From Mytilus trossulus (lineage: Eukaryota), in NCBI RefSeq assembly GCF_036588685.1, contig NC_086374.1:87544001-87608000 (forward strand): 64,000 nt of DNA, given 5' to 3'. The translations under genes and the position numbers were made by a program. Shown here piece after piece: positions 3,001-58,100 of the stretch (position 1 is the first letter of the stretch; every line of letters begins with the position of its first letter). The notes under the pieces are model-generated. The model saw only the letters and a list, made by a program, of their open reading frames with translations, was not told where the DNA came from and did no database searches.

Positions 3001-3346
3001 GTAGATATGGAAGATGACGTTATTCTGGTAAATCCATCTAATACAACCTTTATATATACAGAGTCAATGATTTGGTTGAATTTTATGGACATTGAAAGAC
3101 CCGGGGGGTCTCAACCTCATTTAAGCGGTCTCGGGTAGGTTTTCGCTATATATTTTGAATATCCAACTGGCACTTTGGGCGCTCCGTAAACATAGAAGAC
3201 AGGAAGTGTACCCAAATTCCTTTTAGTCACGTTTGTATCTACCTATTGACTAAATGTCTGTCAAATATTAGAAAGATTGAGAAATCAGGGGGCTCTCACC
3301 ATTACCCTGTGCCCTTTGTCCTAAAATTTTGACATTTTTCGACTGA
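1..3346. repeat. Tandem satellite array, 368-bp monomer, about 9.1 copies visible (runs off the left edge)
   Basis: CCTTTGTCCTAAAATTTTGAC recurs at 1, 369, ..., 1841, ..., 3313. No differences between copies were seen by eye. The array ends abruptly after GACTGA at about 3346. Confidence 0.97.
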
Positions 3347-32208: not shown

Positions 32209-35200
32209 ATGGGTGTCCTTACAACGCTTGTATCTGTACTTGTAATTCTTGGTAAGTATGACATTTCTTTGTCTGTGTAAATTATTATTTATATTTAGAT
32301 AAATTGGTATTCAATATCATAGAATGTACATTTGGAAAATCACAAAACAAACGGTACCGTTTATTGGTACATTTTCGATCTGCATATAGGTTGTGTTTTT
32401 TTGGAGAAGTTGTGGGAGACGTTTTTCAGTCAGAAACAGATTCAAGATTGGACCTAATTTATCATTTAAGTAAAACCCATATCAAATCTGTATAATTGAA
32501 GAGTTTAATAATGATATTTTTAAAATGCCGAATGCCTATAGGTAACCTTAAGTCAATAGATCATTTTACCTCACATTTTGTAGTGTATATTTAATAAGAT
32601 GATTTCATGCATATATCATTTTTTAAACATAAATGGCAAAACTGCCAATACGTGCATTTCGAGATAAAGAAAAACAAAATTAAAAGGGACTAACAGATTT
32701 AATGAGAAACGAAAATACAACTGGTCTGATAATCTAATTCGTGTATCTAAGTCAGTAATTTATAACTGCTTATCATTCAATAATATTCCATAACTTATCC
32801 TAAGATCTGACAGATAAGACTAATGCGAGAGAAGGCTTTTGTTATGACTTTTGTTTTGCTGCTACAAAGGACCAGAAATCAAATGTTATTCATTTTATAT
32901 ATGCATTTTTTTTATATTCCGCAGCCATCCTTCACTGACCATTCAATGCTTTTCGAACTTATCTCTCGTGTACATCATCTAAATTACATTTTATCAAATC
33001 TACTTACTTTGACATTTCTATTTACCTTAATATAATATGAGGGTGTTAGAATCGAATAGGTCCATTTTTAGCAAATCGTACAATCAATTTGTGTGGAAAG
33101 TGATATATTATTTTTCTTATTCAGTGCCAACAGCAACCTCGCTTTCGTGTGTGGATCAGACATGTGATAGCACTCATGTATGTATATGTACACAACTGTT
33201 GTATTCTAAATACTGCAAACAACATTCATAATAAGCTATGATAAGATTACATTTGTACTGGAAACTTGGTACATTCGAGTGCTATTAATTGCACCAGAGC
33301 GGAAGCATCGAAATTTCAAAACAATCATTTAATCCATATAACCTCATTTTAATACTATAGATAAGAAATACAGTTTTGTTTTGCATTCGTTTGCATTGTT
33401 GTAAGCGTTAAGAGGTTATTATTTTGGCGGATTCAAAAAAAATATCAGTACCATTGCAAGTGCACTGTTAAATTGGCCGAATTTTGTTTGGCGAAAATAA
33501 GTGAACATGTACACGCCGCGCAAATAACCCGCTATACGGTATCTTTATTTTTCAAAAACAAATTCTGTTTCAATTGATTTTTTTGTATTTAAATTAAAAG
33601 ATGCTGACCAACGATGATTTTTGAAATAATCAATATATAAGGACTTATTGATACAATATTATTCCACTAGGTTTGCAAGCTTCAGTTCCATCAAGGAGTT
33701 CTAGCTCACAACCACTGTGACAAGCTTCATGCCGTAAGTATTAAAAAAAATGTCAACAGTAGTATACCGGTTTTCAATAGTAAAAAGTCAAACTAAACAT
33801 AACAGTTCCAGTCACAAACCAACACTGATGGAAATACATAAACTATAAGAGGAAAACATCGGAACAACATTGAACTGCTAAAGAAATAAACGCAAACATT
33901 TATAGAAATAGACTATTTGATATCAACTGTCAATCTCCTGATTTGGTAGAGAATTGAAAAAAAAAACCAAATGGTTGGTTGAACCTGCTTCAAAAGGTAG
34001 TCAAACCTCCCACTTATACCGAAATGTCAACAATACTGACAACTTTGCAGATAAACGCATGAACACTCAGGACACAGAAATACATTAATAAATTATACGA
34101 TAATACATTACACATAAACCAAAGAATAACAACGGACACTTTACATATAATAGCATTTGACGAAACCGAGAGCGATTTACTTATGCATGTAAGAATCGAA
34201 CTTATTTTCATATTTTGCTAAAAATAATACATATGAACTTACGAAATTTGAAATCATGATTCGTATTATAATTCTTAAGACCTTCAGAACTGTCAGTACT
34301 GGCAGATTAATATCAGTTGGCATGTGCAATCTTCAGTATATTAATACCAACTTAGGATACTGATCAATATTTCATGGAACAATTTTCAATAGCAATGGTA
34401 GAAAATCAGTATAAAATCATTGATACCAGCATTATATGTTTAACGTCAGATGCTGGTTTTGTCTACAAGAGACTCATTAGAGAATCTCGAATAAAAAAAA
34501 AGGCCAAAAATGGTGCGATGTTGAAAACCATAAAAATGCAAGCTTGAAATTATTGTATCAACTGAGTGACATATATGTATGCAGACGCTGCTTGGTGGAA
34601 TTTGCTCCATAGAAATAAATTGTAAAGTTGAAAAGTCGCAAAGGATTTTTTTTTGTCAACCGGTGCTCATTGTCAATATTTAGTAGATGAAAGTTTAGAT
34701 ATGAGGCAAACTAAAAATTTTAGGTTGTGGTAAAATTTGCAATTTTGGAATTGGTCATAGAAAAGAATCCGAGATTGTGATAATTATCTCTTTTGCTGAT
34801 TTGGACTTTTTTTTATACACGTGCATAACATTCGTCTTTTAGGCAAGATGGTTTATATTTAAGAACTGAACGCTTCTTAGTGCATTTGGGATGTAAAAGC
34901 GTTGACAGAAGTACATTTTGTATGAAGCGCCGAAGCGCTTCTATCTAAAAATGTGCGCACGGTCAACGTTTAGAGGTACAAAAGAGGCATTCAATACTTA
35001 TAATTACATTTTTTAGCTAGAATCATGGAAACACGATTTTAATCAAGTTTTCATTTAATTTATCTATGCACTATGCACTTTATTGTGGGACCTCGTGTAA
35101 TCATGAATGATACATTCTATGTGTAATGAAGTTGATTAAGGAATAACGCGAGATTGCAGATAGCCAACCAGAAAAACTCGTAACAATAAAACATACATCT

Positions 35201-38200
35201 AATGTAATTATATGAATATATATATATATATATATATCTCAATCAGTTTGTCTCATGCATTAATGCTGAAAATACTTTTACTACGTCGTTCTAAATTTGA
35301 ACATGTTTTTTTCCTTTTTTTTTCCATTTCTTGTTTTCATTGGCCCTTTAATGTCTCCTTATGTTGTCAAAATAAACATTTCTGCTTGAAAACACATTAT
35401 TTCATAAACCATCTTTTGCACTTTTGTACTGCATTTCTGGTATACATTTATTTACTATCGTCTAAAACCAATGTTATATATCCTCCTTTTAAGCATGGAC
35501 ATCATCCAAAATGCAGTGATCCATTCCCTGCTGACGACCATTGTCATTGTGATGATGAAGCTTGCATGAATCGTCTATGTGAGTTTTTTTTATTTTCGTC
35601 TGGAAACGTCATACACACGTATATTTAATTTGACATAAAACGGTATTTAGATCCTAGATCCTCATCAATTTTAAATACTGAAAAATGATTATAAAAAAGT
35701 TCAGACTTTAAACTCTTCGTGTATATCTCCGTATGGGGATGTATAAGTACCCTGCCACGTCAATTCTGTATTTTGTTGGATGTATTTCTGCCTTGAATCC
35801 ATCTGATAAGTGTATAGAGAACATGGTTTGATTGTCAATAATACAACCCTTTCAACTGTTTTTATAGATATTCTCATTGATATAGGAAGATGTAGTGTGA
35901 GTGCCAATGAGACAACTCTCCATTCTTATAACTGTGTAATTGGAGGTTTGTCGTCTTCACATTTATTAAACTAAGCCACATCCTGTCCCAATTCAGAAGC
36001 CTGTTATTCAGTTGTTATTGTTTGTTGCTGTATATCATATTTGTTTTTCGTTCATTATTTGGAAAATTAGGCTGTATGATGTTTGGAACAAAATAACCAC
36101 AATGATATACAATGTATTAACAAGTGACTAAAGAGATAATGTACCTTTACTTCTGTTGATTATAAACTCGAACACAAATAACTCGATAGTAACGTTTCAT
36201 CAGGATAATTGCTGATTGCGTTTTCTATCGTCAACATCAAAACAAATTATGATTTATGAACAGATGCATTGATGACAACTGCAGTCACTATTGATATGAC
36301 CACTGCTGACCCGATGGTTAACCCAACTGCAGCACCTACACAGAGTGCTATAACTACACAAGGTAAAATTTATAAATGCTTATTCATCTCATTATTGCAC
36401 TTTTATGATTAACCCACTGAGTATATTATAGTTTAAACACTCATTTGTAACTAGAATTGGAACAGTACATATTGCGGACCATCAGGGCATTATAACGGGA
36501 CCATTATTATTCAACCAGTCATTGCAAAAATTCCGCAAACGGATGTTATATTCTTTGGCATCTAAACTAGGAGACGCCATATGAATGCTCCCGGTGTCAA
36601 ACGTTAACACCAAGCATTTTCATGCATGTTCTACGCCAATTTTGAGGATTCCAAAAAACCACAGAAAGAATCATATGCGACTTAATGATGGTGGGGATAA
36701 AAACAAAAAGTGTCGGTCAGGTGCAATGTCAAGGAGGCCGGGCTCTTTTGATGAAATTGGAACAATGCATAACTACTTCAATATACAAATAAGTAGTGAT
36801 GTGATTGCCAATAGGCAACTATCCTACTAAGACTAAAGGATAATGATGTTAACTTAAGTCACAGTACGGCTGTCAAAAATACGCGTAGTCAATATATTTT
36901 TCGATTGTATGATGACGATGGAAGTTTTTTACTACATTGCCTGGCTATACACGCCTTGCACGGTCGGTGGTGGTATGATATCATTTGCATTTATACTGTG
37001 TTAATTTGTCGTTTTAATAGTTCCATTCTCTTTAGTTTTACACGAAATCTAAATCTGCAAGTGTTCACATTTGTGGACAGATGAATAGAAAAAAACCCAT
37101 CTACTACATCTATTTTTCAAAATACAGTTCCTGTAAAGGTGAAATGCAACCGATTTTGTTTTATATAAATAAACATTGGAGATGCAAAGGTATCTTCCAT
37201 CAAAATAAAATTTTAATAAAAAGTGCTTTTGAAAAATGTCTCTTCTAATTATTTAGTTGTTTTTTTCAAGCTATTGAATTCATTGAATACTTAGTAAAGA
37301 GTTTGAAAAGATGAAAAGTATATTGTTATTATTTAAGCATCAGTAGTAACCACAACAGCCCAGCCACCTTTTACAACAAAGGTACCACAAACTTCTCAAC
37401 CTGTTGTCACAACAATGGCACCAATGGCAACAACAACGATGGCACCTGTAACTATGGCTCCTACAACTCAAGGTAAATATAAGTGTCACGCATTTCCTAC
37501 TTTTATTGATACCATATTTCTAGAACAAACTACGGTGGGTTGACAATCTCACTACAACATATTGTACTTATTTTTATCTTTCTACTGCGGTACCTATGGT
37601 CCAAATTCATGATCAGATTTTGATCATGGAGCACACCTGTTTGAAACATGTTTTATTTAATCATATTTTTTATAGCTTACTCAAAAACATGCATATCAAC
37701 TGGATTTTATTGTACAATGTGACACTCAAGGCCAGATTTTGCTTTAAAGACATATATCATTGATATGGTCCTTTATTGTAACTGTTTATAATTTGTCAGA
37801 TTAAGGAAAATGCTTAGTTTGTTCTACGTCCGGGTTTGTCTTAGTCGTATTTACTCTAGCTTTTTCGGAAAGTTTGGTTATTATCTTTTTCAAATATTTT
37901 AAAATATCTTTTGTTGGCATTTCAACTGTATAGATCCGGGCCCCACTGGTGTTGCTTATAAAGACGAAACGCACGTCAGTCTATTTGATGAGTTTTTATT
38001 ATTTCAACGCTGATGGTGACATCTTATAATGAAAAACTTTAAATATTGTATAAATAATTGAACTTATTCCATTCAAACTCATTCTATCACTTTAGAACAC
38101 ACTGTATGTTTATTGTGAAATAATTTGTGTTTGTTTAGTAATGTAAACTTATATAAATTTTCGATATAAACTTTTCTCTTAATTGCAAATTATTAATAGT

Positions 38201-41200
38201 GAAATACCAAGTACATGTACATAACTTTTGGAAAAATTAATTTACAAAGATAAAAAAAAATAAGGCAGGTCTTGTCTTTGTTTTTGTTTTTGTTTTTTAA
38301 AGGTCATTTGAAGAGAGCAAGACCTTGTTGATAAATATTGCGAATCAACTTCACAAATAATTCATCATCTTGGTGTATGGATTCTAGGTATTGGTGTTGT
38401 CTGTCATCTTAATTCCGCATTATAGTGACCACTGCCCTTTCCTCGATCTTTATATCTATATCATTAACAGAAAGCTTAATAAAAATATTTATGATAATAT
38501 TTATCAAAGGTACCCGGATTATAATTCAGTACGCCAGACGCGCGTTTCGTCTATATAAGACTCATCAGTGACGCTCATATCGAAATAGTTATAAAGCCAA
38601 ACAAGTACAAAGTTGAAGAGATAAAAGAGATGATTTTTCATTTCCTATCGTGAGTTATCCATTTTTAGATGGTGACGTTCTCTTGTCACCATCTTTAAAA
38701 CGTCTTTATATATCTCAACTTGTACGATTCGCTCGTGTATGTAACAACGTTTTAGGTATTAGATATTTTATATTTTAGCAAGAGAAATTTATGTATTACT
38801 GAAAAATTATTACACCAGGGTTTTCGATATCACAAACTAGTCAAAACATTTACTAAATTTTATCCTCGGTACAAGGAAATAATTCGTAAATATAACTCAA
38901 CATGCAGACATCTTATACGTTCAGGTATTCACATCCAATCTTTCAGGGTAATATTCTTTACAAAGCAAAAAGTGTCAGTATTCACCTCATAAAACTAAAC
39001 CTTTACCAGACTTATTAAGAAGGGATATAGTTACGATACTGTTGTCAGGTCATTAAAGATTGCATATTTTGGCTTTAATATTGATTCGATTATAGGGTCT
39101 ATGCATCGGAATTAAACACATTTATTCTAAAACCAGTTGTTGGCATGAAACGGGTTATTTTCTTCTCATATATTTCATGATGGTATAATAATAAACCCCT
39201 AATAGGTGAGATTGTGCTTGATACTCATATGATGAAGACATAATCTTTCAAGCAGTTTAATTGAGGTCTGGAGCTGCCATGTTAGTAACTGCTAGTAGTC
39301 TGTTGTTATTTATGTATTATTTTCATTTTGTTCATTTTCTTTTGTTTCTTATTCTGACATCGGACTCGGAATTTTCTTAAATCGAGTTTTACTGTGAGTA
39401 TTGTTATGCGTTTGTTTTTCTACGTTAGCTACAGGTATAGGGAAAGGGTTGCGATCTCAAAAAACATGTTTAACCCCGCTGCAGTATTGCGCCTGTCCCA
39501 AGTCAGGAGCCTCTGGTCTTTGTTAGTCTGGTATGATGTTTAATTTTAGTTTCTTGTGTATACTTCGGAGTTTAATATCAAGTCCATTATCACTGGACTA
39601 GTATGCATAGTTGTTTAGGGGCCAGCGGAAGGACGCCTCCGGGTGCGGGAGTTTCTCGCTACGTTGAAGACCCTTTGGTGGCATTCGGCTGTTGTCTACT
39701 CTATGGTCGGGGTTGTTGTCGCTTTGACACATTCCCTATTTCCATTCTCAATTTTATAGTGTTCTTTTATTTTTCCATGTGAATTATCACAACTTTTACT
39801 GTAAAGTCAAGTTTTTAGGAAAAGTAAAATCCTTTTGGCGTAGCTCGGTACTTATGCATCCCGTAAATATATTTTTATACTAGGGTATTTTTTTTAAATT
39901 CTTCTCTTTTATTTTTTCTTATGTGCTTTTTCTTTATGTCACTTGTTTTTCTTTGTTGACGTATTTGTTTGTTTTTATTGTGATTATGGTTGTTAACACA
40001 ATGCTGGCTACTCTACCTGTTTTGACGTTGTTGTCAATACAATGGAATTGTATGTTACTGTTATACAAGTGGGAGGTTTAGCTAGCTATAACCCCATTTT
40101 TAATCCTCCATTTTCTAATGAAGAAATTGCCTGTATAAAGTCAAGAATATGACAGTTAGTTTCCATTTGTTTGGTGTGTTTAAGCTTTTAATTTTGCCAT
40201 TTGATAACGGAATTTCCGATTCGAATTTGCCTTACAGTTCGGTATTTTTGTAGCATCACTTTTTATTGAGTTGAAAATTATTTGTTTAATTTATTAAATT
40301 TACCGACTGTATCTTACAAATGATACAAAACATACAATGTTTATTATAACGGTGTTTTAGCTACAACAGCATTGGTATGCATGGACCAGGATAAAAGATG
40401 TAACGATGCAATTTACCAGCAAATCCTATGTCAATCAGTCGATAATAGGGATTACGCAATTCGAACATGTCCAAAGTCATGCAATTTATGTGATGAGTTC
40501 TTCGGTAAGTTTTACATTAACCTAAAGAATTCATTTGGCTTTATTTTTATGTATTTTCATAGGACTGTATCCAAAAGTGTACGATTCAAAGCCGTATTTG
40601 TCCTAACTTAAATTAAAAACTTTACCTATACATAACACTTATATAAATGAACGAAGGTATGTTGTTAATGAGAAAATGGGAATCGTTTAATCCTCACATT
40701 TTTTAGAGAGCATTATGTTACTAGAAAGGGAAAACAATATATATGAATTAAGCAGACTTCCATTTTTAAGTTGTATCCTAAAATGACAGACCACTAATAT
40801 ACTAGTCATTAACTCACACGTGGTCTTTTTTATGTTTTGTTTAAATGAACGCACGGAGAGGTTGTATAATCGCAATTTTTTATAATTTATTCAAAATTTC
40901 GAAAAAGATATATCCATATATTTGTTTAGGGGCAATCGGGTGTGGGAATCTCGCTACATTGAAGACCTGTTAGTAACCTTCTGCAGTTGTTTTTTCTATG
41001 GTCGGGTTGTTGTCTCTTTGACACATTCCCAATTTCAATTCTCAATTTTATATAACATGATAACTAATAAGACAAATTATGACTTTGACTGTTTGATTTA
41101 TGTGCATCAGTATACGATTAAACAAACAGTATTGCATTGAAAATACCTAGCTTTGATAAAGCTTAAACCCATGGTGAAGGTAGTTTGGAAGGCATTGAGA

Positions 41201-44200
41201 TTAAGATGAAAATGAAAAAAGCTGCTTTTTTATTTGCCTTCGCCAGGTTCGCGAAGATGGAAAATATTTTGGTATTACAAATATACTTTATTAATAAGAC
41301 AAGCAGAACATTCGAAGGAGGCATTCAGAACTCATTAGTTGAAGACAAATAAAACCATTATAAGTTTTGATTTGAATGTTTCAATGCTAACACTTTGGCA
41401 ATGATATGCTAGTTGTTTAACAATAATATTTAAATGGTGTTGAATATTTAAATCCTTAAATTTGCTTCATTAGAATATGTCTTCTTTGTTCACAATTGAA
41501 GTATAACTCAACTACTTTTGATAATATGTACCTTATATGTATGATTTGTAGCTTTGAAATCGAGTACAACACCTGTACCTGTTGTAACAACGACAGGTAA
41601 CTAAATATATATATTTATATATTATCTCATAAGTAATAGTATACTACTATTAATCGGTATGATAATTCAATATTGTTTTCAACGTTAAAACACATATTGA
41701 GATGCCATATGGTTTCCAGTGGGACATCATAAAGATGTGAACCTTTCAATGTCACCTTAACGCCTGCAAAAATAAGCAAATTCTTCGCGTATTGTATAGT
41801 AATCTTTAATGGCTCAAAATGTAATTCAATTAAAAGAAAGAAATGCAGAGTCTTATTTGGCTGATAAGATTAAGATTAAATTTAATTGGAGTGTTGAACG
41901 AACGCAGCAGCTTCTGTGCATTGGTGTTTCTTTATTTATATTCACATAAACATTTCAATAAAACATAAACAAAATGAATTAAAACAATGACGATGTCAAT
42001 GAACATATGAAATGAATGTTTATGAATGCTCGAGGAAGCCAAAATAATTGTAAACAAAAAACTTAATATAAACATCAACGGGCTGATATAAGCCATGAGG
42101 CTAAACAAAAATCGTGTTTGGATATTTTTCGGACGCAGTTAAAACTTAATATTTTTTATTAAATTGTGCACCTTTTATTATTTTTTACATTTCTAAACGA
42201 AAATTGTATTCAGGTGATCATTTTTTTTATTTTGTTTTGTAAAATTCTAATACATTTATTGTAAACTCTTATCCTTTAGAATTACCGACAACAACATCGT
42301 TCCAGTGCGTTGATCATGAAACCAAATGTAGTGATACGTTTTATCTAAGTATTCTCTGTAAAGCTACAGACCAACCATCAAAAGACTATGCTCTAGCCAC
42401 ATGTCCAAAGGCGTGTAACCTGTGTGGTTCAGTAGGTATGTATATGATATGTGTGTACCTATCATGTTTGAATATAATGCAAAATTTAAGATATCGAATT
42501 TGATATTGAATGCATTTCAAAACTCTAACCTAGACAACGATAGTCGTTATCCTTGGAATATAAGATATATAACTTGACCCTGTTACTGTCGGTGGAACAC
42601 ATGTGTCTAAATCGACTATACTGGAGTGGCATTTTTGTTTTTTTGCAAGCGCTTATTCATAACTGTATCTCAAATGAAACAGTGTAATATGTTAATTCAA
42701 TGCGCCTCCAATTTAACGTTGTAAAGGTCTGACATCATTTATCGAATGACGTCAAAGTTTAGCATTATGAAAGCCACAGTAGTCCAGGCGGGCTGTATAG
42801 TTCATTAAAGTTATAAACAAACGATAACATTTGTAAAGTTGCATCTAGAAACTTACTACTAGATTCACTTATCGTTATTATAATTTTATATACTACAAAT
42901 ACTATAAATAAATACATATATTTAAATGCAGGTATATTGTGTTTTTTTCGAGAAAAAAAAATGTAATATTAGGAGATATGTGTACTGGATTATAGTAAGC
43001 AAATGGATAATGGGTGTTTTAAAAAGTGAATTAGCCCATACGAACGTTTTGGTATCTACATATGCTTTATGAATTTTGTTCGGTTCTGTACAGATTTGTT
43101 TTAAATTCTTTATATAGGATCTCTGGATCCGGCTTTCGGGTAAGTAAACAAACATTCTTTTATTATTGCACACAGCTTATCGAATGAAGATAACAAAATA
43201 AAAGACCATTGAGTTTGCGTCTAGATTCAACACACTTGGTAAAGCCGGAAATGAAAATATATGTCAACATTCATGCATTTGTGCATGGAACATACACAGG
43301 AACTTCTTTAAGTTGATTAAAAACATTCAAGTTGTCACTAAATGTAGTCGTATGTTAAGGGATGTAAAGACTTGTTGCACAATAAACACGTGGCAATAGT
43401 TTACAAACACTTTCTACATTTACACGTGATCATGTTATAGGCGCTTTTTGGTTGGATGCAGCGAGTTTCAACTGCAACCAATAAAAATTCTTACCTTGTG
43501 TCTCCGAAATTTTATCTCAATCCGCCGAGGGTGAAGATAACGGGAGTGGATCGTAACCCTTGGCTAGCGAAGATGAATAATTGTCTGCAAATTGAAATTG
43601 GTAAGTGAGTGATAAGTAGGGTGTAGTGTTAATGTTTTCAAATGTTGCCACCGCTGCATGCAAAGAAATAAACACTATAGTTAGTATGTATTTTATCATC
43701 CCCTTGATGAATGTTACCTACCGAATTAGACAATTTACCGGATTTATTATCACATAAGCAACACGACGGGTGCCACATGTGGGGCAGGATCTGCTTACCC
43801 TTCCGGAGCACTTGACATCACCCCTAGTTTTTGTAGGGGTTCTTATTGTTTATTCTTTAGTTTTCTATGTTGTGTCATGTGTCCTATTGTTTGCCTGTTT
43901 GTCTTTTTCATTTTAGCCATAGCGTTGTCAGTTTATTTTGGATTTATGAGTTTGACAGTCCCTTTGGTATCTTTTGTCCCTCTTTTATCAAAGTATGAAG
44001 TGTTCAGTTATGATATAAAAAAGTCCGTATATACACTTTTAAAACTGTTGAAACATTCAAGTTCATTTTCACCGTAAAACATTTAAACGATTATAAAAGA
44101 AAGGCGAAAGACACCAAAGGTACATTAAAAATTACAAGTCGAAAATAAAGTGACAACATCATTGCAAAAAAAAAAACAAAAAAAAAACCAAACAAAAGTA

Positions 44201-44474
44201 TACAAAACACAACATAGAAAACTAAAACCTGGTGCAACAAAACCCCAACAAAAACTGAGGGTGGTCACATATCCTTCGGCAGGGTATGCAGATTCTGCTC
44301 TACATTAGGATTATGTCGTGTTGCTCATATCAGTAATGAAACAATACTAAGTCTATTACGGAATATCACACTCGATGTAAAGGCAACGGGGTTGAATTTA
44401 CGTCATTTGGAACATATTCGATATCATCTGTTAAATAATCTACTTAAAATAATTCTCTTTTTTATTTCAGATAA
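32209..44474 (+). CDS. Gene C: secreted protein with a His-rich 8-Cys domain, mucin linkers and two ShKT domains
   Basis: Exons: 32209-32251 MGVLTTLVSVLVIL; 33125-33177 VPTATSLSCVDQTCDSTH; 33671-33733 VCKLQFHQGVLAHNHCDKLHA; 35494-35578 HGHHPKCSDPFPADDHCHCDDEACMNRL; 36264-36362 and 37338-37472 Thr-rich; 40361-40504 CMDQDKRCNDAIYQQILCQSVDNRDYAIRTCPKSCNLC; 41552-41596 linker; 42280-42435 CVDHETKCSDTFYLSILCKATDQPSKDYALATCPKACNLC; 43118-43139 GSLDPAFG; probable terminal exon from 44471 (A-TAA) with AATAAA at 44511. All phases are compatible and mirrored in paralogue D. Confidence 0.88.
38500..38620 (-). mobile_element. Truncated retrozyme copy with an intact hammerhead (38531-38574, minus strand)
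   Basis: The minus strand reads GCGTCA CTGATGA GTCT TATAT AGAC GAAA CGCGCG TC TGGCGT. Confidence 0.88.
38621..39760 (+). mobile_element. 3' end of a Penelope-like retroelement plus downstream tail
   Basis: KRDDFSFPIVSYPFLDGDV..YISQLVRFARVCNNV..RNLCITEKLLHQGFRYHKLVKTFTKFY at 38621-39115, with frameshifts. Confidence 0.8.
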
Positions 44475-45764
44475 GAAATTGGACTTCAGATAGATACAAG
44501 CTTTAGTGAAAATAAAAATGTCAAGTAGATTTCTGTATTAATGAATATGCAATGTATACCGATGTTTCAACTGGTCTTCTGTTTATAAGTATACCTACAA
44601 GTTGGCCATTTCCGATGTGCTAAATAAAATTATTACAAAAATATCGAATTCCAAGGTTAATACAAAGATTGAATTCCATAAAGCCCCACAAAATCAAACG
44701 TTCAAGTTTACCAATCAACGAATGGTATTGAAAACATACTCACTATGTCTATTTTCTGATGATAATGGTGGGTTGTGCATCAAAATGCATCATCATAAAT
44801 ACTTCATTCTATAACTTTCCCATAACGAAAGGTTCCGAGTAAATTGCTATTTGCACGCAAGCAAAAATGCGTCAAATGATAGCAGGATTCAACATGTTGA
44901 CAATGACAGACATCAGAGCTGAAGGAACTGGAATAAGTATCAGTAATGGTCCTGAAATAGTGTTACTATACTTGGTTTGATGCATTGGTACTGAAAAATA
45001 CTATTACAATAACCTAAGAGTACAAAATCTTTCACATTAAGGTCAAACTTACTACTACCATTGGCAAATAGTAATTACCCTGTCCTCAATTTGTGAAGGT
45101 TATGTTTATAATCTTCTTTTCAAACTGCATACTAGTATGATCATGCAATAGTTGACTGGAACGATACATATATATTAACAGTTTAAACATAGTTTTTCGT
45201 TTCTATCAATTTACATTTTCAATAAAAAAAAAAACAATGTCCGAACTGAATAATTTTGCACAACAACAAATAAAATTCAACAGACAAAAAAAATCGAAAA
45301 TATAAGAATGAAATCAAAAGTGTGATATTGATGATGTATAAATAATGTAAGTGTACTACAACAAAGTTTGGTAATTTATATTGCGTTTTTTGATTCCCAT
45401 ATTAAAATGTAGGCTACTTACAAATAGTTAAACCTTTATATCATTTTTGAGAAAGGATATATAAAACATTCTAATATGACGTCCTATCACTCTTTGTAAC
45501 CAAAGCCATGTTCTAATGAGCACAAAATATTTTTGACACATGCGCACAAATTTACTGTTTATATTAAAGTTATTTCCATTGTTATCCCATAAAACATATA
45601 CACTAAAGTAGCTTTAATAAACTTTTATAATATATGTTATATCGAACAACATACGTATTTTTTTAACAGACTCCTCGGGGAGGAAACGGGAACAGCTAAA
45701 CATTTTTACGATATTTTCGTACGCTTTGACATATAAAAATACTGTATTTGTCCTATAAGAATCG

Positions 45765-46920
45765 AAATAATTCTTCATGTCATGCTCTATGCTCATTTTA
45801 ACAATGAGTAGGCATTATGTTTGACCACATTTTACAATGCCAAGAAATTACCTCCTTTCAAATTCGGCAAATACCCCATAAGACAAATTACATGGATGAT
45901 TAATATTGACCATTTGGTATATGGCTGTGTTCTAAGCGACACGTACATGAAGGTCATAAAATAATTTGTTGAATGAAATCAAATCTTTAAATACCAATGG
46001 GTGCCGTAGGAGGTCGACCGGAATTTTTAGCGAGGATTTTTCGCATGTATCAGATAGAAAACTTGGGGTTAGAATTCATAGAATAAAAAAGGGGGAGTGG
46101 CAAATATTCATGTATATTTTGTACACAGAGAGAATTTCCCAGAAACCCTTTGCCAAAAAACATTCTTTTTCTTATTTGTGACTTCGAACTTTATGTTTTG
46201 AATTGTAGTTTCACTTTCCATATTCGGTATTTATTCTAATGTAATCTCCACGTGGTAAAAATCACGTGATGCAGGAATAAAGTATCTTCGAGTTAGACTA
46301 TTTATTTCTTTTCGGGCGAATACTCCAAGCAAACAACATGCATGTGTATAACGGCACTGTATATTTTCGTATTGGATAAAGAAAGTTGACGGTCCGGTAA
46401 ATGAACAGATTTGTTAGAAAGCAAGGTTTTGATTTTAATTAGATTGGAAAGCTTAATTCGAGGGTTGAAAATAGAGAGCACAAAAGAGGGGGGTGTTCCA
46501 CAGGGAATATTTTTATCTTATGAACTCTACATTTGAAAGGGTTATTATTATTTTTATTTAATCAAAAGAGAAAAACGAATGTACTACAAATTGTGAATGG
46601 TCTTTCTTCCTTTCCCCCATGCCAAGAAATTGCCTCCTTTGAAATTCTGCGAACACCCCATAGAGCAAATTACATGGATGATTAATATTGACCATTTGGC
46701 ATATGGCTGTGTTCTAAGCGACACGTACATGAAGGTCATACAATAGTTTGTTGAATGAAGTCAAATCTTTAAATACTAATGGGTGCCGTAGGAGGGCGAT
46801 CGAAATTTTTAACGAGGATTTCTTGGCATGACCTCGCTAACGCTCAGTGTAAAATATCGACAAATATAGTGTCTACCCATGTTAAAATGAGCATAGAGCA
46901 TGACATGAAGGAATTATTTT
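45765..46920. mobile_element. Non-autonomous DNA transposon relic with about 70-bp TIRs and an internal direct duplication of about 210 bp
   Basis: AATAATTCTTCATGTCATGCTCTATGCTCATTTTAAC ... GTTAAAATGAGCATAGAGCATGACATGAAGGAATTATT; 45838-46050 resembles 46620-46830. Confidence 0.8.
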
Positions 46921-47643
46921 TTTTAATTTACACACGGGTCGCTCACTTTTGATAGTAAAGGACGAGGAAAAACTCCAGTCTTTATAATGGATAACTTAAC
47001 GTCACCTAATGTCTATAGGTAATTTAGTTAATGAATAGATCCTTATCATTACTACTCTAAATTTAAGCGACTGAAAGATGGTATTAACAAACTTTCTACT
47101 TTGCACTATATTCTCTCAAAATGTTTTAAAAAAGTGTCAATCAACATACATCACACTGCTTTAAGAGTTAAGTTAGATTCTTGTGGTCAGTTTCACAAAA
47201 ACAATATGACTAAGAGTAATAAGCAAACACTGCATATCATCACACACAAAGAATAAATCATCACCAATAAAAACGTTTTCAAATGAGAAAATGGATCTTG
47301 CAAAATGTACCTAATACGACGACATATCTCCTGCAAGGACATACAAGACAAGAACACATATATGTCATTATGATGAATTAGAACTGTGAGGTATTTAAGT
47401 GTGCAGTATAAACAATTATAATCTTTTTTTCCAATTAATTCTGTTATACTTCATTGTTTCTTTGAAAGGATAAATGTTGCATGCATCATTTTTGATATTC
47501 GGGAGCATATTGATGCTGAAACTAATATTGATGCTGAATATCGCCAATCGAAAACTTCGTTTAAATACGATTTAAAAAAGAGGGACGAAAGATACCAGAG
47601 GGACAGTCTATAGTTATCAAAAGTACCAGGATTATAATTTTAT

Positions 47644-47687
47644 ACGCAAGACGCGCGTTTCGTCTACATAAGACTCATCAGTGACGC
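47644..47687 (-). ncRNA. Type I hammerhead ribozyme, intact core, one stem I mismatch
   Basis: GCGTCA CTGATGA GTCT TATGT AGAC GAAA CGCGCG TC TTGCGT. Confidence 0.88.
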
Positions 47688-47999
47688 TCAGATCAAAAAA
47701 GTTAAAAAGCCAAATAAATACAAAGTTGAAGAGCATTGAGGATCCAAAATTCCAAAAAGTTGTGCCAAATATGGCTAAGGTAATCTACTCCTGGGGTAAG
47801 AAAATCCTTAGTTTTTTCGAAAAATTCTAAGGGTTGTAAACAGAAAATTTATAAAAATGACCATATAATTGATATTCATGTCAACACCGAAGTGCTGACT
47901 ACTGGGCTGGTGATACCCTCGGGGACGAAACGTCCACCAGCAGTGGCATCGACCCAGTGGTGTAAATAGTTATCAAAAGTACCAGGATTATAATTTTAT

Positions 48000-48043
48000 A
48001 CGCCAGTCGCGCGTTTCGTCTACATAAGACTCATCAGTGACGC
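48000..48043 (-). ncRNA. Type I hammerhead ribozyme with the cleavage triplet mutated from GTC to GAC
   Basis: GCGTCA CTGATGA GTCT TATGT AGAC GAAA CGCGCG AC TGGCGT. Confidence 0.8.
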
Positions 48044-49188
48044 TCAGATCAAAAATGTTAAAAAGCCAAATAAATACAAAGTTGAAGAGCATTGAGGATC
48101 CAAAATTCCAAAAAGTTGTGCCAAATATGGCTAAGGTAATCTACTCCTGGGGTAAGAAAATCCTTAGTTTTTTCGAAAAATTCAAAGTTTTGTAAACAGA
48201 AAATTTATAAAAATGACCATATAATTGATATTCATGTCAACACCGAAGTGCTGACTACATGGCTGGTGATACCCTCGGGGACAAACTCATTATCGAAAAT
48301 AAACTCACAACGCTCAGGCTAAAAATGAAAAAGACAAACTTACAAACAATAATACACATGACACAACATAAAAAACTAAAGAATAATCACAACACAAAAC
48401 CCACTAAAAACTAGGGGTGATCTCAGGTGCTCCGGACGTGTAAGCAGATCCTGCTCCACATGTAGCACCCGTCACGTTCCTTATGTGATAAAAAATCATG
48501 GTAAATAGTCTAATTCGGTAGGTCACATTTATAAAAGGGAAGGCGATTGTAGTTACGACGTAAGGAACATATCCGATATCATTTGTGAAACGGTTATTCC
48601 ATAACGGTCAACCAACTCGTGATGGCGTCCGTAAAATTTACGAAATGATGATTTCAACTTCACAATTTGGAACTCTTGGCTTATAGCTTCCTTGTGATCA
48701 GCAACCCTCTATCAAGAAAAATCACAGCTTTATATTTATGATCATTTGTTTGTTTGTGTGTTTGTCTCTGCAGTATTGCCAATAAATTTCCTTTATAAGA
48801 TTTCTACATAGAAGGTCAGATACAACGGCTATCAATTTGTACTGTTACATAATATAGAGGATTTGTACGTAAGGGACGGAAATACTGCATATCAACAGGT
48901 ATATACATATACCTCGTAAAGGTTTATCGAGGGCACTTCTTGTTTGACAATTTCCTTCCAAATTCCGTCGAATTTAATTGACGTGACTTTGTAGTCAGTA
49001 AAACGAGTGACCAGATGGACTACGTTTGTCTTATTGACAAACGAGAGAAGTCTTGATTATTTACTAGTTATTAGTATGAATTCCTAAGTAACCCCCGTGG
49101 TGGTCAAGATAATATAAGTCACGTTTACATAAGAAATATTTAATTTTCTTATCTTTACATGACCTTATTGTATCAATATAAATATAGA

Positions 49189-52100
49189 ATGGCTAACTTC
49201 ATAAGTTTTTATTTTACTCTTCTAATTTTTGGTAAGTTTTAAAAATTGTTATTTTAGTTATCAAGAAACTTTTTTCGTCAGAATAGTTGTAAAATCTTGA
49301 AGCAATGAAATAAACGAACAACTACAGTATAAATTTAGATATATACAAACTTGATTCATATTGTTTTCTTTATCAATAGATATAGTTCGCTATGTTTTTG
49401 TATTTTCGAAATATAATAGCTTAGAAAAAAATAATACGGTACTATATAATATTGTAATTCATGTAACTATGTTTAAGTCGTACGAAAATTTAACAATATT
49501 GAGTTTGGTGCATTTTTTATATTGATTTTATTGATGACTTTTGAAGTTTTGATATTGTACTTACGAAATTCCAGAAGGTAAACAAAACTTTTTTAAACCC
49601 GCAAAAAACAAATATGCATATCATATTTCAAAAATCTTGGGGGAAGGGGGGGGGGGGGTATCCTTCACAAAATGTACTTACTTTATTCGTTCTAAGAATG
49701 CCTTCGACGCCTTTTTTACTCTTTTGGAATCGAGCGTCACTGATGAGTCTTTTGTTGACGAAACACGCGTCTGACGTATATACAAAATTTAGTCCTGGTG
49801 TCTATGATGTGTTTATTTCGAATCCGAATTTTATTTTGATACACTTGGTTAGGTTTTGATTATGTAATCGCTGAGTTGCATAGTTGTAACTCTTTAACAA
49901 CAACCATTATTAATATGTGTATCAACAATTTTTTTTTAGACCTATGAAAGATATTAATGTTAAAACTTGGTTGTGAAATACTATTTATCAAACTATTGCG
50001 TAGGTTAAAGTATTCTACACAGCTACTTTTGCATAGGTACTATGTCTGTACCAAAAATCTGTAGTACTGGACGTCTCATTTTAATATTCAGTACTATTTT
50101 GTTCCTTTAAAACTATTGTAATGATTAGGTATCTGTATTTTACAGTACTTTATTTGTACTTGAAATTTAAGTACTAGATTTTGGGTTCAACAGTATTTTG
50201 AAAGTTTGTCTATTTCAAATCTCTTAAAGCTATGATTTTTAAACATGGAATATTTTGATTACTGTTGGTATTATTTTTGTACTAAAAATTTTAGTACAAA
50301 TAAAGTACTTTAAAATAAAGGTACTTAAATATTACAATAATTTTAGAGTAAACAAATAGTACTAAATATTAAAAGTAAATCTCCAGTACTTCATATGTTT
50401 AGTACAGAAAAAGTACCTATGCAAAAGTAGCAGGGTACAACATTCAAAAAAAATATGTATACTTGTATTTCAGTGCCAACGGTCACATCTTTCAACTGCT
50501 TTAAAGAACTATGTCGTGGGGCAGAGGTAAATTAATTTCTTATATGTATTGATACGATAATTCAAAGATAACTGCAGAGAATTTGGTGAAGTTCCACCGT
50601 ATTCAGTATCAATGAGGATTACATAGTATTGTGATTACAAATTTTAAAATGTTATTCTTAGTAAATGCTTTAGTTTAATTTCATGGTTTCCTATTTGTTC
50701 TTTTTACTAAGCTTTGTAAAAAAAAAGCAAATAAGAATTGTAATCTTAATCTGAATTCCCACAGAAAGCTTAAAGTTGTGTTTGAGAATTTTCCACAGGA
50801 CAGCTGACCGTAGTTGCTTCTATTTCTGAGATAGATGTTAACTTCAAATCCATCTTATAACAATCGGGAAATACTTCATAATTTTGACGTTGTATATTTT
50901 TTAATCCACCATCTTCTACGTTTGAAAATGCCTGTACCAAGTCAGGAATATGACAGTTCTTGTCCATTCGTTTTTGATGCGAATTGTTATATGATTTTGC
51001 CATGTGATTATGGACTTTCCGAATTGATTTTCCTCTAATTTCAGTATTTTTGTGATTTTACTTTTTAGTACTTTTCAAACATTGGTAACTTTCATCTGTT
51101 TAGACTATTTCATTATACACCTATGTCATTCCTTACCTGGAGTTGACAAATGACTGCATTTTTAATGTCCATTATCTTTCTCTTCAGTATTTTATTAAAT
51201 GTTTTAGGTTTGCAAACTTGATTTTAAAGATTCGTATATAGCTAACAGTAGTTGTGAGGAACCTCATCGTGTAAGTACTAGATATAAAGCAAAATCGAAC
51301 TGGTTTTTTTCTCTGCAAAATTGAATATCCTTAAAAAGTTCAATAAAGATTTGGTATGTTTTTCAATGTGACGAGTTTCCACAACCGACCAAATGGCAAG
51401 GATGTATATTACAGGTCACAATTTCAAATGCAATTTTTTTTGGAAATGAAGTGGTTTCTTACATATTATAATCCTTGCCATTTATTTTTTTAATAGTTTA
51501 TTAATCTTGAACTGCTAATATTTCGATAAAATGGACCTTTTTTCAATATATGTACAACTAAACATATTGAAATATGAATGCTGTTGCAAAGAAGATAAAA
51601 TAATAACACAGAAAAAACATTATTATTATGTTTCCTTATCATTTCAGCAAGGTCATACAGTTGATTCTAAATGTGGATTTTATTTCCCTACTAGGGGTAA
51701 ATGTTTCTGTGAAGATCCAGCATGCATGGCAAGGCTATGTAAGTGTTAATCGACATACATAAGATATTAAGATATGATTGACTAGATTTTATTTTATTTT
51801 AACAAATGTCATCACACTTGTTGATTTTTCGTATAATATCAATTATAATTTGTGTTTTGAATTTGTAGATTCCTTGACCACCACTCTTGGGACGAGCACT
51901 CCAACCACTGAATTAACAACATTTTTTTCAGGTAACATAAAAGAAGAAATTTACAAGTGACCTTTATTCAAACTTTTTGCGAGATCATCATTTTTCTAAG
52001 TGTTTTACCAAATTAATTTTCATATCAAAATGAATAGAAAATTATTAACATACTTTCAAAATATTTTCTTCCTCAACATGTTCATACCTTTTGCATTGGT

Positions 52101-55100
52101 ATATTCAGATTGTAATGCCCCTTTATAACTTATTATCATTCGAGCCTAATTAACTCTAATTGTATATGCGAACAAAAGATACGTGAATGTTTTGTTCTTC
52201 TTCTCGCCGACTTGTTTATTTATTTGTTCTATGCAGATTTTATGCTCGAGCACACGAGGAAGAATATAAAAAAAGATACAATAATTCTTTAGTTTTACAA
52301 ATATGTCTTCTCACTGAAAGTTTTATGACTATATTAATCGCATTTATCAAAAACTTGAAATATTAGATTGCACACATAGAATTTTACATGAAGACTCGCA
52401 TTCATGGAAATCAAGTCGGTTTCGCGCTAAACTATGTAAAAATAGAAGTCCTTTTTTTCATTGAAAACTTTCTGTTTTTATCAAGCATCATATATGTATG
52501 GAGTAAACTTATATACTTCTTTGCTTGCAGGATAAGCCAAGGCAGTTTACTTTTCCATTTTAAAATCTGTTGTTTTGACTATCCCATTTACTTCGTTGTA
52601 CTTTTTGAAAGCAACACAATCAACTTGAAAAATATATTTCTTGAAATTTTAAATCCTTAAATTCAGCTGTCATGAGCTTTCTTATTTGACATACAAACTA
52701 ATCTTAATACATAACACAGTACATTGACTTCGTATGTTAATTTTCAGTGTTGTGGGTGTTTTTTTGTATTTTAAGAAAAACCTACACAGCCAGTATGTGT
52801 TGACTTTGATGTGAGATGTAACAGCAGTTTTTACCAACAAATATTATGTGCTTCAAAAGATCCTTCAAGTATTTCACTGGCCATTTCCACATGTCCGAAA
52901 ACATGTAATCGTTGTGATGAATATTTTGGTAGGTAAATAAGGACATTACTTGAGAATTGAATGGTTTATTTTGTAGGGTTTGTTTGGGTTTTTTTTCTTC
53001 TTTTTTGTTAGTGTTTTTGTTTTTGTTATTTCTAGAGAGTAAACTTGTTGACCAAAGCCTATTTAGTATATAATGCGGAAGCACTTCATTTTAAAAATGT
53101 GTTCGGGATGAAACTATAAAAGAATGTATCAATGTGGTTGGATTTCAATGTAAAAGAAAGGCGAAAGAGTGTGAATTACGTCAAGCTTCTTTGTGTTTTC
53201 GTCAATCGAATATAATCCACCCATTTTCATAACGTTGTTACTGTAATGCTTCCAATGAGACGTTTATCAATCAGGCAACTGTATAGGAACTATGAATGCA
53301 ACTTCCTCAGACATTGTTAATAGTTATCAAAGGTACCAGGATTATAATTTAGTACGCCAGACGCGCGTTTCGTCTATATAAGACTCATATCAAAATATTT
53401 ATAAAGCCAAACAAGTACAAGGTTAACCTCGACGGTTTTGGCTTGACTTTTTGGGTTATTATGGTTTTGTTGCTCATCAGCATATAATACTATTTATGCT
53501 TCTCAATAAACTGATCTACAGTGTACTTGATGAAGGTTGGTATAGAAACACAAGCCGTGCGCACTGAAACTAATTTCAAACGTTTATATGACTTATTATA
53601 ATCAAAGAATTTGATTTTATTATGTTTTTATACTTTATGCAAGAAATCAATATTTCATGTGGAGTATTTATATTGCCTTATCAGAATAGAGAATGGAAAT
53701 CGGGAATATGCCAAAGAGACAACAATCCGACCAAAGAGCAGATGATAGCCGATTAATTAATTATGCATTATTAATCAAAGAAAATTCAGCAGGTTTTCCT
53801 AAATATCAATTTTAAAATGAAACAGTACAAACATAATTCAATGTTTTTCTTACTTTTTTGCAGCGCAGCTAACTACTTTATCTCCACAAACTGTCGCAGT
53901 TGTAACAACGAATGGTAAAAATAAACTTAGTTCATGTACTTATTTTGTTTCGTCGATCATGGATAACACATATCCTATATTTTTCTAATATAACTTGGTA
54001 TTCAGGGAGATATTTGCCACTTTTGCTCCTCAGATTTAGAACCGTTCTTCGCATGCAACAACCAATGCTGATTCAAACAAAGCGTAAAATAATATATTAC
54101 TTTTATGTCAACACAACTTTATTAAAACACAGAAAAAAATGTTTAGAAAGTATAGATATTTTCCTGTATGACTGTTGTTTAGAAAAATAACTTGAATCGA
54201 AAATTGTAGCCCAATATGCCAGGTTTTTGTTTTTTAAGCAGAAATGGCTTTGGAGTTCATGCAATTCCACTTGGTTTTACTTAAGCGTTTACTTGTTTGT
54301 CATCGGATTTACGGTATCTATATATATGAAAGCTTTCTTTATAGAATATATCATATATTATTTTGAATGGAAATTGTCAACAAAAAAATGAAAACATTTC
54401 ATACCTGCAATAAATGTTTAAAATGAATTTGATTTTTTAGAAATGCTTACTACGCTGGCTACAAAAGCTTTACCAACTACTGCGACAACAACAAAGTCAC
54501 CAACCACAGCTACACCAACCACAACAAGCTCACCGACTACAACAACTTTACCAACTACAGCAGCTACAGCAACTACCACGACGACGACGACAACACCGAC
54601 TACAACAACAATACTGACGACAACTACTACACCGACTACAACTACAACACCGACCACAACAACTGCTACGACAACAACAACTGCACCGACGACGACAACA
54701 ACGCCAACCACTACAATATCACCAACAACAACAACAATGCCGACTAAAACTACTTCACCTACTACAACAACTGCTCCAACTACAACAACTACAATGGCTA
54801 AAACAACTCCACTAACCCCTGCGTCAACAAAACTGTCAAATACTCAAGGTATTTTCATATTGAATAATGACATTATTTACAGAAAGTATTTCATTCAATA
54901 TATCTCCTTTAAACTAAAGAAACCTAATTTTATCACGATTTATTAATAAATCGTAAAAATCCCTAATATTATCAACCGGTACCATGTATCTGTAAAATAA
55001 TTGTCTAAATAAAATAAAAATGAGTTCGAATAGAGTTGGATATCATAAATGTGAAGAATTCATTATCACTGGACTATTATATATTTGTTTAGGGGCCAGC

Positions 55101-58100
55101 TGAAGGACGCCTCCGGGTGCGGGAATTTCTCGCTACATTGAAGACCTGTTGGTGACCTTCTGCTGTTGTTTTTTATTTGGTCGGGTTGTTGTCTCTTTGA
55201 CACATTTCCCATTTCCATTCTCAATTTTATTCATAACTTATGTTGTTAATTTATTTGTAGGAAATTTGAAAGTATGCCAAATTTATCTGAACGTGTATTT
55301 TAAGAAAAATTCTGAATACATATGTCTAATCTTATAATAACATACAAGATATCACACTGCAACTTAACAGTTTACTCTACTCGATTTTAACAGATAACTT
55401 TTACTATTTTTTTGACATTTTGAATAATGATGTGTTGATTTGGTACGCTGTACATATTGTTTAAAACAAAATTGAGAATGCGTCAAAGAGACAACAAACC
55501 GAACAAAGAGCAAAATAGAGAAAATTCCGCACTTGGAAGCGGGCTTCAGCTGCCCCTTGACTTGACACAGGTGCTTATAATGCGGTGGGGTTAAACGTGT
55601 TTTGTGAAATCTTTACCCTTGCTTATACCTCTAGCTAATGCAGAATGTAGAATAACAAACACAGCAATACGCACAGTCAAGTTCAGAGTCTAATGTTAGA
55701 AAAAGTAGCAGAAAAAAAGACACAAAATGACAATGATACATCAATTAACAAAGGACTCCAAACAGTGACTTATATGCCAGCTCCAGACCATATGAACTGA
55801 ATGGAAACAAATTATTCGTCATATGAAAATCGAGCACAACCCCTCCTGTTAAGGGTTTAGTCTCAAACCATTATAAAAAACGTTTGAAGAACATAACCGG
55901 TATCATGCCAACATATAGTTGTATGACACAAACATTAATACCCTGCTTGGGTTGGTCTCCAATGTAAATGGCTCATAAAAAAATATGACATTTTTTTTCT
56001 TCATTTTTTTTAATTTTACTTCAGTAACCACAGCACAGCCTACATGTTCTGACCAGAGCCCCAAATGTATTGATCACCTCTTCACAAGTATCCTGTGTTC
56101 AAACTTGGACCCCATCAATTTAGACTATGCAATTGCTACGTGTCCAATGTCCTGTAATCGATGTGATGAATATTACGGTAAGTATGTAGGTATGTAATGA
56201 TCGATAACATTAACAAGAATATGGAACAATTGATTGTGGATTTTACTTAAATATCTTTAAAAGACTTTCAGGTGCAACACTAAAAAATTCTTAAATCAAT
56301 TATTTTTTAGGTCTGTTTCTTACCGTTTTCCAAACAAAATGTCTACTCCTATCGAACATATGTATCTTCTTGTTCAATGACAGTCCTATATTTTCCTGCT
56401 TCATTTCATTTCACAGACGTTTTTTTAACCTGAATGATTATTTGGATAATACTTACTTTACATTCATTGTAGTCTTTACTAGATAAAGGCAACAGTAGTA
56501 TACCGCTGTTTAAAATATATAAATCGATTGAGAAAAAAAACAAATCTGGGTTGCATACTATAATGAGAGAAACACTTCATATAAGAGGAGAACTACTAGC
56601 ACTGGTCCGATACTACATCATATGGTTATACAGGACTAACATCATAATAGAATGTGTACATGTATACAATTCGTCTCAAATTTGGACCAAATAAATACTT
56701 TACTACAGACCAAATATATTGACGGAAAGGTACACCATCAACTTGCCACTCTACATCATATATTCTTTTACAACCCTAGATTAGTTCGACAAGGAACAAA
56801 ACTCGACTGTCGAAATTTCTATTTTTGTATATCTGAATTGGTGGGTTAGAAGTGGTCGGCAGACATATTTTGTTTTGTCGTACTGCTTAGATGTAAAGCT
56901 AGGTTAACACTGCCGATCAGATCAACTCGATGATCCCGATTGTCCAATTTTCAACGACCAAGCTCAACCAAATTCTTTATTGGACCTGCTACGACTTCTA
57001 TCCGATTCAACGACCAAGCTCAACCAAATTCTTTATTGGGTCTGTTTACGACTTCTATCCGATCGCCATCCGACTGTACATGACCTTAACTCGACCATTC
57101 ACGACTCCTTAATAACGCCATCACGACACCATCCCGACAATAATTGAATACATATTCGATTATTCCGACCTTTCACGATATCTACTCTACCAGAGAGATA
57201 ACTTAGTTATCAGCAGCCTAACAATGCATAATATTGCACAAATACTTTAATATTTGAAAAATCCGCCGGTGCCAAAATTGCAGGATTTTCTTCCAAAAAA
57301 ATTCTCGTGTAGAAAGTCAGATTGATGACGAGCAAAGTATACTATCCTGGACATTCTTGTCGATTGAGTCAGACCAGTCTCTCGATCACGTAATTAGACT
57401 TCATCGGGCTTGATCGAGTTGATCTGATCGGCAGTGTGAACCTAGCTTAACAGAAACAAGGGTAAGAATTCCGCAGAGGGAGGAAAACAATGTTAATACT
57501 GCATATTTGTAGATCTACTAGTATTTCAAACGGGATATGATATTATTATTTTAGGTAGACAGTTGAAATAATATAACAAACCACTTAGATAAAATAGACC
57601 AACACAAAACAAAAATAAAGTACAACAATACAGGTAACAGTTATAATTGTTATTCGTATTTTCATTTTCAGCTTATTTACAAGCAATAAGTAAGTTTTTC
57701 AATTTATTTTTTTATTTTTTTCAATTAAATTGGAATTGTGGTTGCTTTTAACATAGCCAATAGTTCTAAAGGAATAGTTCATCCCTACAATCAGATTTCT
57801 CCATTTACGTTGATATATAACGAAGTAGTTAACAACACATTGGATATTATCTAGTAAAGGAAATATGGACGGCGCTTTTTTTTTTTATTTTTTTTTTTAT
57901 TAATTTGTACTTATTCATGGATGCAGGTTCTCCTGGTTATGTCTTGTGTCTCCTCGTATTGTAAAATTTGGTTTTCCAAATGATGAATAATATAGGGAAA
58001 TTGGAAAGGTCAAGCACAATCCAACATTACAGGGAAAGGGTCTCGAAAATCGAAAAGTCTAGAAAAAATATTGACCACACAAAATAAAATTGAGGACAAA

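Follow-up and report, generated by a model that had tools for sequence, protein, structure and literature searches.

The window analysed here, a stretch of 64,000 nucleotides from Mytilus trossulus (positions 87,544,001 to 87,608,000 of contig NC_086374.1, C2 below), contains two genes, C and D, whose products share a compact N-terminal domain with eight cysteines, to which we refer as the head. This head is likely a miniaturised Ly6/uPAR (LU, or three-finger) module that has kept the core of its fold, a reading to which we would assign a probability of roughly 0.58; its ancestry among LU domains, taken by itself, appears considerably safer. The initial annotation had taken the head for a reduced LU domain of common descent with gene A of the same window, and this is still the best reading in view of the tail of the downstream gene E, the layout of gene B, which serves as a control, and a copy of the head ending in CN; on the other side stand profile comparisons short of significance, a weak structural model, and a terminal Asn and a first loop that fail to conform to the LU pattern. 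Rather than counting the head among LU domains proper, we regard it as a probable LU derivative.

Both heads follow the pattern C-x4-C-x5-C-x13-C-x11/13-C-x9-CxC-x4-C-M exactly as first described: the Cys spacing is 4,5,13,11,9,1,4 in gene C and 4,5,13,13,9,1,4 in gene D, each time followed by Met, and the span from Cys1 to Cys8 is 55 and 57 residues, respectively. The description of three head exons with phases 1-0, 0-0 and 0-1 was equally exact, and all of them have AG/GT ends in both genes. When the genes are rebuilt from splice sites on the forward strand, the head exons of gene C lie at 33125..33177 (exon a, Cys1-x4-Cys2-x4), 33671..33733 (exon b, x-Cys3-x13-Cys4-x5) and 35494..35578 (exon c, Cys5-x9-CxC-x4-Cys8-Met, His-rich), and those of gene D at 50474..50526, 51208..51270 and 51648..51738. 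The head of gene C also occurs in the database protein XP_063420286.1 (P0001), named Mytilus trossulus by its source, which departs from our model in no more than an upstream ATG and the choice of an acceptor that shifts three residues. For gene D, a protein search using the last head exon returned no candidate in the protein collection; contigs from four read runs, probably RNA (none is recorded as such), join exon b to exon c (51270>51648, in two of the four runs) and exon c to the following linker exon (51738>51869, in all four), with GT..AG at both joints and the onward exons joined too. The joints 49231>50474>51208 are not among the 15 contig joints listed (81 further joints are unlisted).

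Described initially as a feature of two paralogues, in both of which it is indeed present, the head turned out to be a repeated module. A third copy, in gene F, lies 850 kb away, has the spacing of gene C and is represented by the database protein P0014. Of the 16 matches that the second ShKT exon of gene C gave on contig C2 in a genome search, nine fall within C, D, E and F; around the remaining seven we found 15 more a-b-c exon triplets, ordered, on one strand and with canonical splice sites. This brings the total to 18 head modules on the contig, a set from which a few incomplete triplets were excluded and in which the 15 from these surroundings are models without RNA support; because the triplet scan demanded these phases and Cys motifs, the invariance of those 15 is partly by construction. 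A profile built from the other 17 recovers every module at 29-58 bits, a score that is partly cysteine-driven, and the median identity among the 17 aligned modules is 24%. The modules stand beside ShKT exons, either alone or, as is often the case, in tandem, with as many as about four in a row, and in three of these genes the last domain seems to be a full LU, both exons of which were found. His makes up 10-16% of 11 of the 18 heads, that of gene C among them and that of gene D not.

The C- or F-type head is intact in database proteins of three Mytilus species. A profile of this type matched Mytilus only, both in a protein search (5 matches among 48 candidates) and among 1.84 billion representatives (2 true clusters among 5 matches), although such profiles are narrow, predate the divergent modules and have little bearing on the range outside Mytilus. 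Of the three remaining matches among these five, two are long proteins and the third, P0010, proved to be an unrelated repeat.

What, then, speaks for LU? Eight Cys are present in all 18 triplets in the order of the LU core, which counts eight cysteines or, with the optional 2-3 pair, ten; the heads lack that pair, with the LU numbering assigned by us and 15 of the triplets chosen partly by their Cys motifs. A hydrophobic residue stands two places before Cys1 in all 17 modules checked ([LFIV]-x-Cys1), a C-x5(6)-C motif surrounds the first intron, CxC-x4-C closes the domain, and one further module keeps the CN terminus (CxC-x4-CN). As is characteristic of LU (PMC6600238), the exon set is flanked by phase-1 introns and the genes are clustered. 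The comparison of intron positions recommended at the outset likewise came out in favour: in C, D and F intron 1 falls at C-x4/x-C (the slash marking the junction), the same codon as in five of the six LU modules of genes A, E and G. Intron 2 follows its Cys by five residues in the heads versus four in five of the A/E/G modules and four to five in the sixth, and the third LU exon starts xC in all six, whereas the first Cys of head exon c is found at position 4-9. Under random placement, the intron agreement would have a P of 1.3-1.4e-3 by strict and 1.5-1.7e-2 by loose criteria, both post hoc and dependent on assumed phase frequencies.

The same exon triplet had been ascribed to every LU module of gene A. 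This holds for modules 2 and 3, whose middle exon starts xC and the latter of which ends in a stop codon; for module 1 we located a middle and a last exon but no first exon nearby. The layout comparison places a full 12-Cys LU module of gene A at 5906..8311 (exons 5906-5994, 7396-7467 and 8167-8311, phases 1-0/0-0/0-1, forward strand) and the last one at 11383..12860 (exons 11383-11471, 11722-11802 and 12699-12860, forward strand), the first exon of the latter matching Toxin_TOLIP at E 0.0056. Gene B (17257..20678, reverse strand) acts as the layout control: its two LU-like modules, which lack the 2-3 pair, have two exons each, with a phase-2 intron just before Cys6. Because gene B and terminal LU modules elsewhere use this two-exon phase-2 layout, the triplet is a mark of a subfamily and not general to the LU genes here.

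Further evidence comes from gene E, which lies 13-35 kb past the window end at 87621188-87642607 of contig C2 (window-relative 77188-98607) and comprises two full 12-Cys LU modules, a Thr-rich exon and three ShKT domains in a model without RNA support. Its tail is a near-copy of the gene D tail, introns included (ShKT1 49/50 identical, ShKT2 41/50, flanking DNA 72-83%), and the phases of the LU modules and the D-like tail are compatible; if spliced as modelled, gene E is an unambiguous LU+ShKT architecture. The M. galloprovincialis model P0007, likewise a prediction without RNA support here, carries LU-LU directly on a C-type tail, with a weak Pfam match of the UPAR_LY6/Toxin_TOLIP type (E 0.0006). 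Of the initial claim that C and D are LU-ShKT chimeras, the ShKT tails are confirmed, and full LU modules are predicted on D- and C-type tails in gene E and P0007; the LU nature of the head itself is still unproven.

Several lines of evidence weigh against a miniaturised LU module. According to a review, LU domains pair their cysteines 1-5, 4-6, 7-8 and 9-10, carry Asn directly after the last Cys and measure 60-90 residues (PMC6600238); their first loop is given as 17 +/- 6 residues in solved structures, with a minimum of 10, and as 9 in the salamander pheromone PMF (PMC4029566). The heads, with 55-57 residues from Cys to Cys, fall below that length. Asn follows the last Cys in only one of the 18 modules, Met taking its place in C and D. 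The Cys1-Cys2 spacing is 4 in 14 of 17 modules and 7 in the remaining three, which leaves a first loop of four or seven residues against the LU minimum of 10 and the 9 of PMF (PMC4029566), and the Cys4-Cys5 spacing is 8-21 in all 17 as compared with 5-6 in the neighbouring LU modules.

Nor do the searches point to LU. With the head as query, every Pfam family stays below its cut-off, and UPAR_LY6 and Toxin_TOLIP, the LU families matched by the neighbours, are unlisted at E up to 10 (10 alignment rows, eight other full proteins and seven last exons); a PDB sequence search with the head gave no match. HHalign between the head and the LU modules of the locus is not significant (probability 0.4-0.7%, P 0.08-0.14). 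Under an LU hidden Markov model (HMM) the heads do not stand out from shuffled sequences (51-214 of 300 scored as high), and with the 18-module HMM all 10 LU modules score below zero; among the six with the same layout, only three beat most Cys-fixed shuffles (0, 3 and 9 of 200, the others 23, 94 and 200). Weak matches to DUF7741 (PF24888), both running to the profile end, were obtained for the head of gene C (E 0.045) and, with the final exon of a second module, at E 0.0054. Neither attains the 27-bit cut-off, and a genome search with DUF7741 returned none of the modules and one sub-threshold, stop-containing match, so that we treat this family as no more than a lead.

In the structural comparison initially proposed, the models proved too weak to test the fold. 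AlphaFold models of the head are weak (predicted local distance difference test, pLDDT, of 44 with three sequences and 61 with 10; the C-terminal half below 50), and Foldseek and VIA yield no significant fold match and no LU, the best weak rows being of EGF, granulin and knottin type, with the EGF rows at E 2.6 or worse. Of the three beta-hairpin loops that an LU domain sets on its disulfide core, the 10-sequence model may show two, as it contains two beta-hairpins in residues 1-33 (pLDDT 74-83), which suggests a fit to LU loops 1 and 2, but also to other small disulfide folds. In the ESM Atlas, the nearest clusters of two paralogues are three-finger types at 0.75-0.78, below its 0.9 lead threshold.

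If the head does descend from the LU cassette, its disulfides might still have been rewired. PMF pairs its cysteines 1-2, 3-6, 4-5 and 7-8, and the short first spacing of nine residues is tied to that shuffled pairing (PMC4029566). A short first gap can accompany a different disulfide pairing, as that source indicates (PMC4029566), and we therefore keep ancestry and fold apart. The still shorter gap of the heads, four or seven residues, could favour a 1-2 disulfide and with it a new topology outside the three-finger fold, which would agree with the lost terminal Asn, with the long and variable Cys4-Cys5 linker and with a C-terminal half that AlphaFold does not model confidently. We consider such rewiring unlikely, however: the confident part of the model consists of two hairpins compatible with normal loops, and the C-terminal 1,4 spacing is strictly kept, albeit in modules that the exon scan selected for it.

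The head might instead be an unrelated small disulfide module, with an EGF-, granulin- or knottin-like beta-hairpin core or with a new fold, resembling LU in cysteines and introns by chance and brought into the same ShKT genes solely by virtue of its phase-1 ends. We find this improbable too. An EGF-like domain needs C4-x-C5 followed by x8-C6, and granulin, WAP and most knottins have adjacent CC doublets; the heads, with their far wider C4-C5 spacing in 17 of 17 modules and without any CC, match neither. The intron coincidence, the CN-ending copy and the slot shared with full LU modules would, moreover, all have to be fortuitous. Finally, that the head is an artefact of joined unrelated exon-like stretches, as the motif-driven origin of the 15 further modules and the failure to find the D head in the protein collection might raise, is highly implausible, being ruled out for C and F and largely for D by the Mytilus database proteins with an intact head and by the contigs joining exons b-c and c-linker of gene D.

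How could a miniaturised LU module of this kind have come about? The head is likely to derive from the same three-exon LU cassette as the modules of genes A, E and G, through a deletion inside the first exon that would have removed most of finger 1 along with the 2-3 disulfide and left a turn of 4-7 residues. The 2-3 pair is the one whose loss is most often seen in LU domains, according to the review (PMC6600238). The four core disulfides, LU 1-5, 4-6, 7-8 and 9-10, would correspond to 1-3, 2-4, 5-6 and 7-8 of the head, and would go on holding together the hairpin of finger 2 and a shortened finger 3. With phase-1 introns at both ends, the cassette would then have been free to multiply in tandem and to trade places with complete LU modules ahead of ShKT/mucin tails. 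The mature protein would most likely serve as a binder in the mucus phase (or haemolymph), with O-glycosylated stalks spacing protease-resistant heads and ShKT domains; His-rich heads would possibly add metal- or pH-dependent binding, and divergent heads different specificities. Gene structure, spacing, the architectures of the neighbours and the repetition of the module are shown directly, and we infer the rest from sequence: the products of C and D may be secreted and glycosylated, and may pair, fold and function in the way outlined. A bolder version, which we put forward only tentatively and hold to be rather doubtful, would make the head a new, smallest-known two-finger module, with finger 1 reduced to a four-residue turn, Asn lost and His loaded, a mobile exon cassette present in up to four copies on the ShKT/mucin scaffolds of a family of secreted binders that are tuned by metal or pH and whose fold the PDB does not yet contain.

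Beyond the head, the products of both genes are predicted to be secreted and consist of a signal peptide, the 8-Cys head, Thr-rich stalks and ShKT domains. The coding frame of gene C (32209-43143) is open throughout. Its signal peptide exon (32209..32251; an in-frame ATG also lies upstream at 32188) and the head are followed by two Thr/Pro-rich linker exons of phase 1-1 (36264-36362 and 37338-37472), a first ShKT domain on a single 1-1 exon (40361..40504; PF01549, 22.9 bits, above the cut-off), a short linker exon (41552-41596), a second ShKT domain (42280..42435; PF01549 at E 0.011, and aligned) and a final coding exon (43118..43143) that encodes a few polar C-terminal residues. The frame of gene D (49189-59430), likewise open throughout, is organised in the same way, except that it has a third ShKT domain and an extended Thr-rich exon. 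Its signal peptide exon is at 49189..49231; after the head come a linker exon (51869-51931), ShKT 1 (52776..52928; rebuild, Pfam and contigs), a short exon (53864-53914), the long Thr-rich, mucin-like exon (54441..54848; rebuild and contigs), ShKT 2 (56025..56177; rebuild, alignment and contigs, the only one without a Pfam hit), two small exons (57672-57689 and 58407-58439), ShKT 3 (58956..59114; rebuild, Pfam and alignment) and the last exon (59405-59430). All these exons are on the forward strand, and neither gene encodes a hydrophobic C-terminal anchor (glycosylphosphatidylinositol or transmembrane). Six Cys are common to all five tail ShKT domains in the alignment, with a motif ending in C-x3-C-x2-C, and PF01549 matches four of the five, one above the cut-off.

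We rejected the nas-14-like metalloproteinase of the database name as an identity for P0001: an astacin would have a catalytic domain with HExxH, but in P0001 Pfam finds only ShK and no such motif occurs. The names of P0001, P0005 and P0004 (nas-14-like metalloproteinase, LDL receptor 1-like) misfit their domains, and P0004 appears to fuse the tail of a gene D orthologue to LU exons of the next gene. A published digestive-gland multi-ShKT gene (PMC9077915) could not be linked to C and D, one of its primers being without match in the window, in 23 loci or in the genome; its expression data were not used.

The surroundings hold further LU genes. Gene G, at 87650006-87664970 of contig C2 (window-relative about 106006-120970), has two LU modules like those of gene E, followed by an exon that by eye resembles a C-type lectin, and no ShKT. 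The LU-like modules of gene B keep a 14-residue first loop; the start and signal exon of this gene were not located. Upstream of the first located exon of gene A, window positions 1-3350 form a near-perfect tandem array with a unit of approximately 360 bases, and a short intronic tandem repeat at 5975-6320 has copies that include the 3' end and donor of exon 5906-5994. Genes of the form head(s)-ShKT-ShKT-full LU occur on contig C2 at 41.37-41.44 Mb and 85.38-85.47 Mb, the final LU being split over two exons by a phase-2 intron, and a close paralogue of the last LU module of gene A lies beside a tandem-head ShKT gene at 84834334-84836415 (minus strand), 2.7 Mb from the window.

Should the LU origin be true, the head would show how small a three-finger scaffold can become in nature: its first loop is far shorter than any described so far, and it would thereby set a limit on what the fold needs. 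An LU-like cassette that is repeated in tandem and interchanged with complete LU domains ahead of ShKT/mucin tails offers direct material for studies of exon shuffling. Recognition of the head family, which Pfam-based LU surveys would likely miss, also corrects misleading database names.

As first stated, this architecture matches no named family by Pfam cut-off, by PDB or in the literature. We found no paper on ShKT with three-finger domains in Mytilus, on ShKT with Ly6 in molluscs or on DUF7741, most subscription journals being outside the scope of the search, and none naming six of the accessions. A 2026 survey of invertebrate LU proteins names several new mollusc architectures in its main text, LU+ShKT not among them; its supplements could list such proteins (PMC13719153). 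That survey kept Pfam-detected LU domains of at least 60 residues (PMC13719153), and for this reason it likely missed the head.

Among known systems, the closest is the 8-Cys short form of Ly6/uPAR, with which the head shares the core Cys order, the L/F-x-C start, C-x5-C, the terminal C(x)C-x4-C, phase-1 flanks and clustering; the three-exon layout is in turn shared with the local 12-Cys LU modules of genes A, E and G (PF00021/PF00087). The head differs from Ly6/uPAR in its 55-57 residues, its first loop of 4-7, the missing Asn in 17 of 18 modules and the longer Cys4-Cys5 linker, as well as in lacking a profile match, in being often His-rich and in its position on mucin/ShKT tails. PMF, an eight-Cys descendant of the three-finger domain whose first spacing is likewise exceptionally short, resembles the head, but it is a stand-alone vertebrate pheromone with a spacing of 9 and a mapped shuffled pairing (PMC4029566), whereas the heads have 4 or 7 and belong to multidomain proteins. 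A review portrays LU as a 'proto-module' rarely found in foreign settings (PMC6600238); the non-standard invertebrate architectures that combine LU with C1q, fibrinogen, Ig, MAM or Kunitz domains (PMC13719153) are similar to the case described here in being multidomain secreted or membrane LU proteins of molluscs. The tails, for their part, recall the mucin-like secreted proteins with ShKT domains (PF01549), which have six-Cys ShKT repeats, Thr-rich linkers, a signal peptide and no catalytic domain, and from which C and D are set apart by the extra 8-Cys head.

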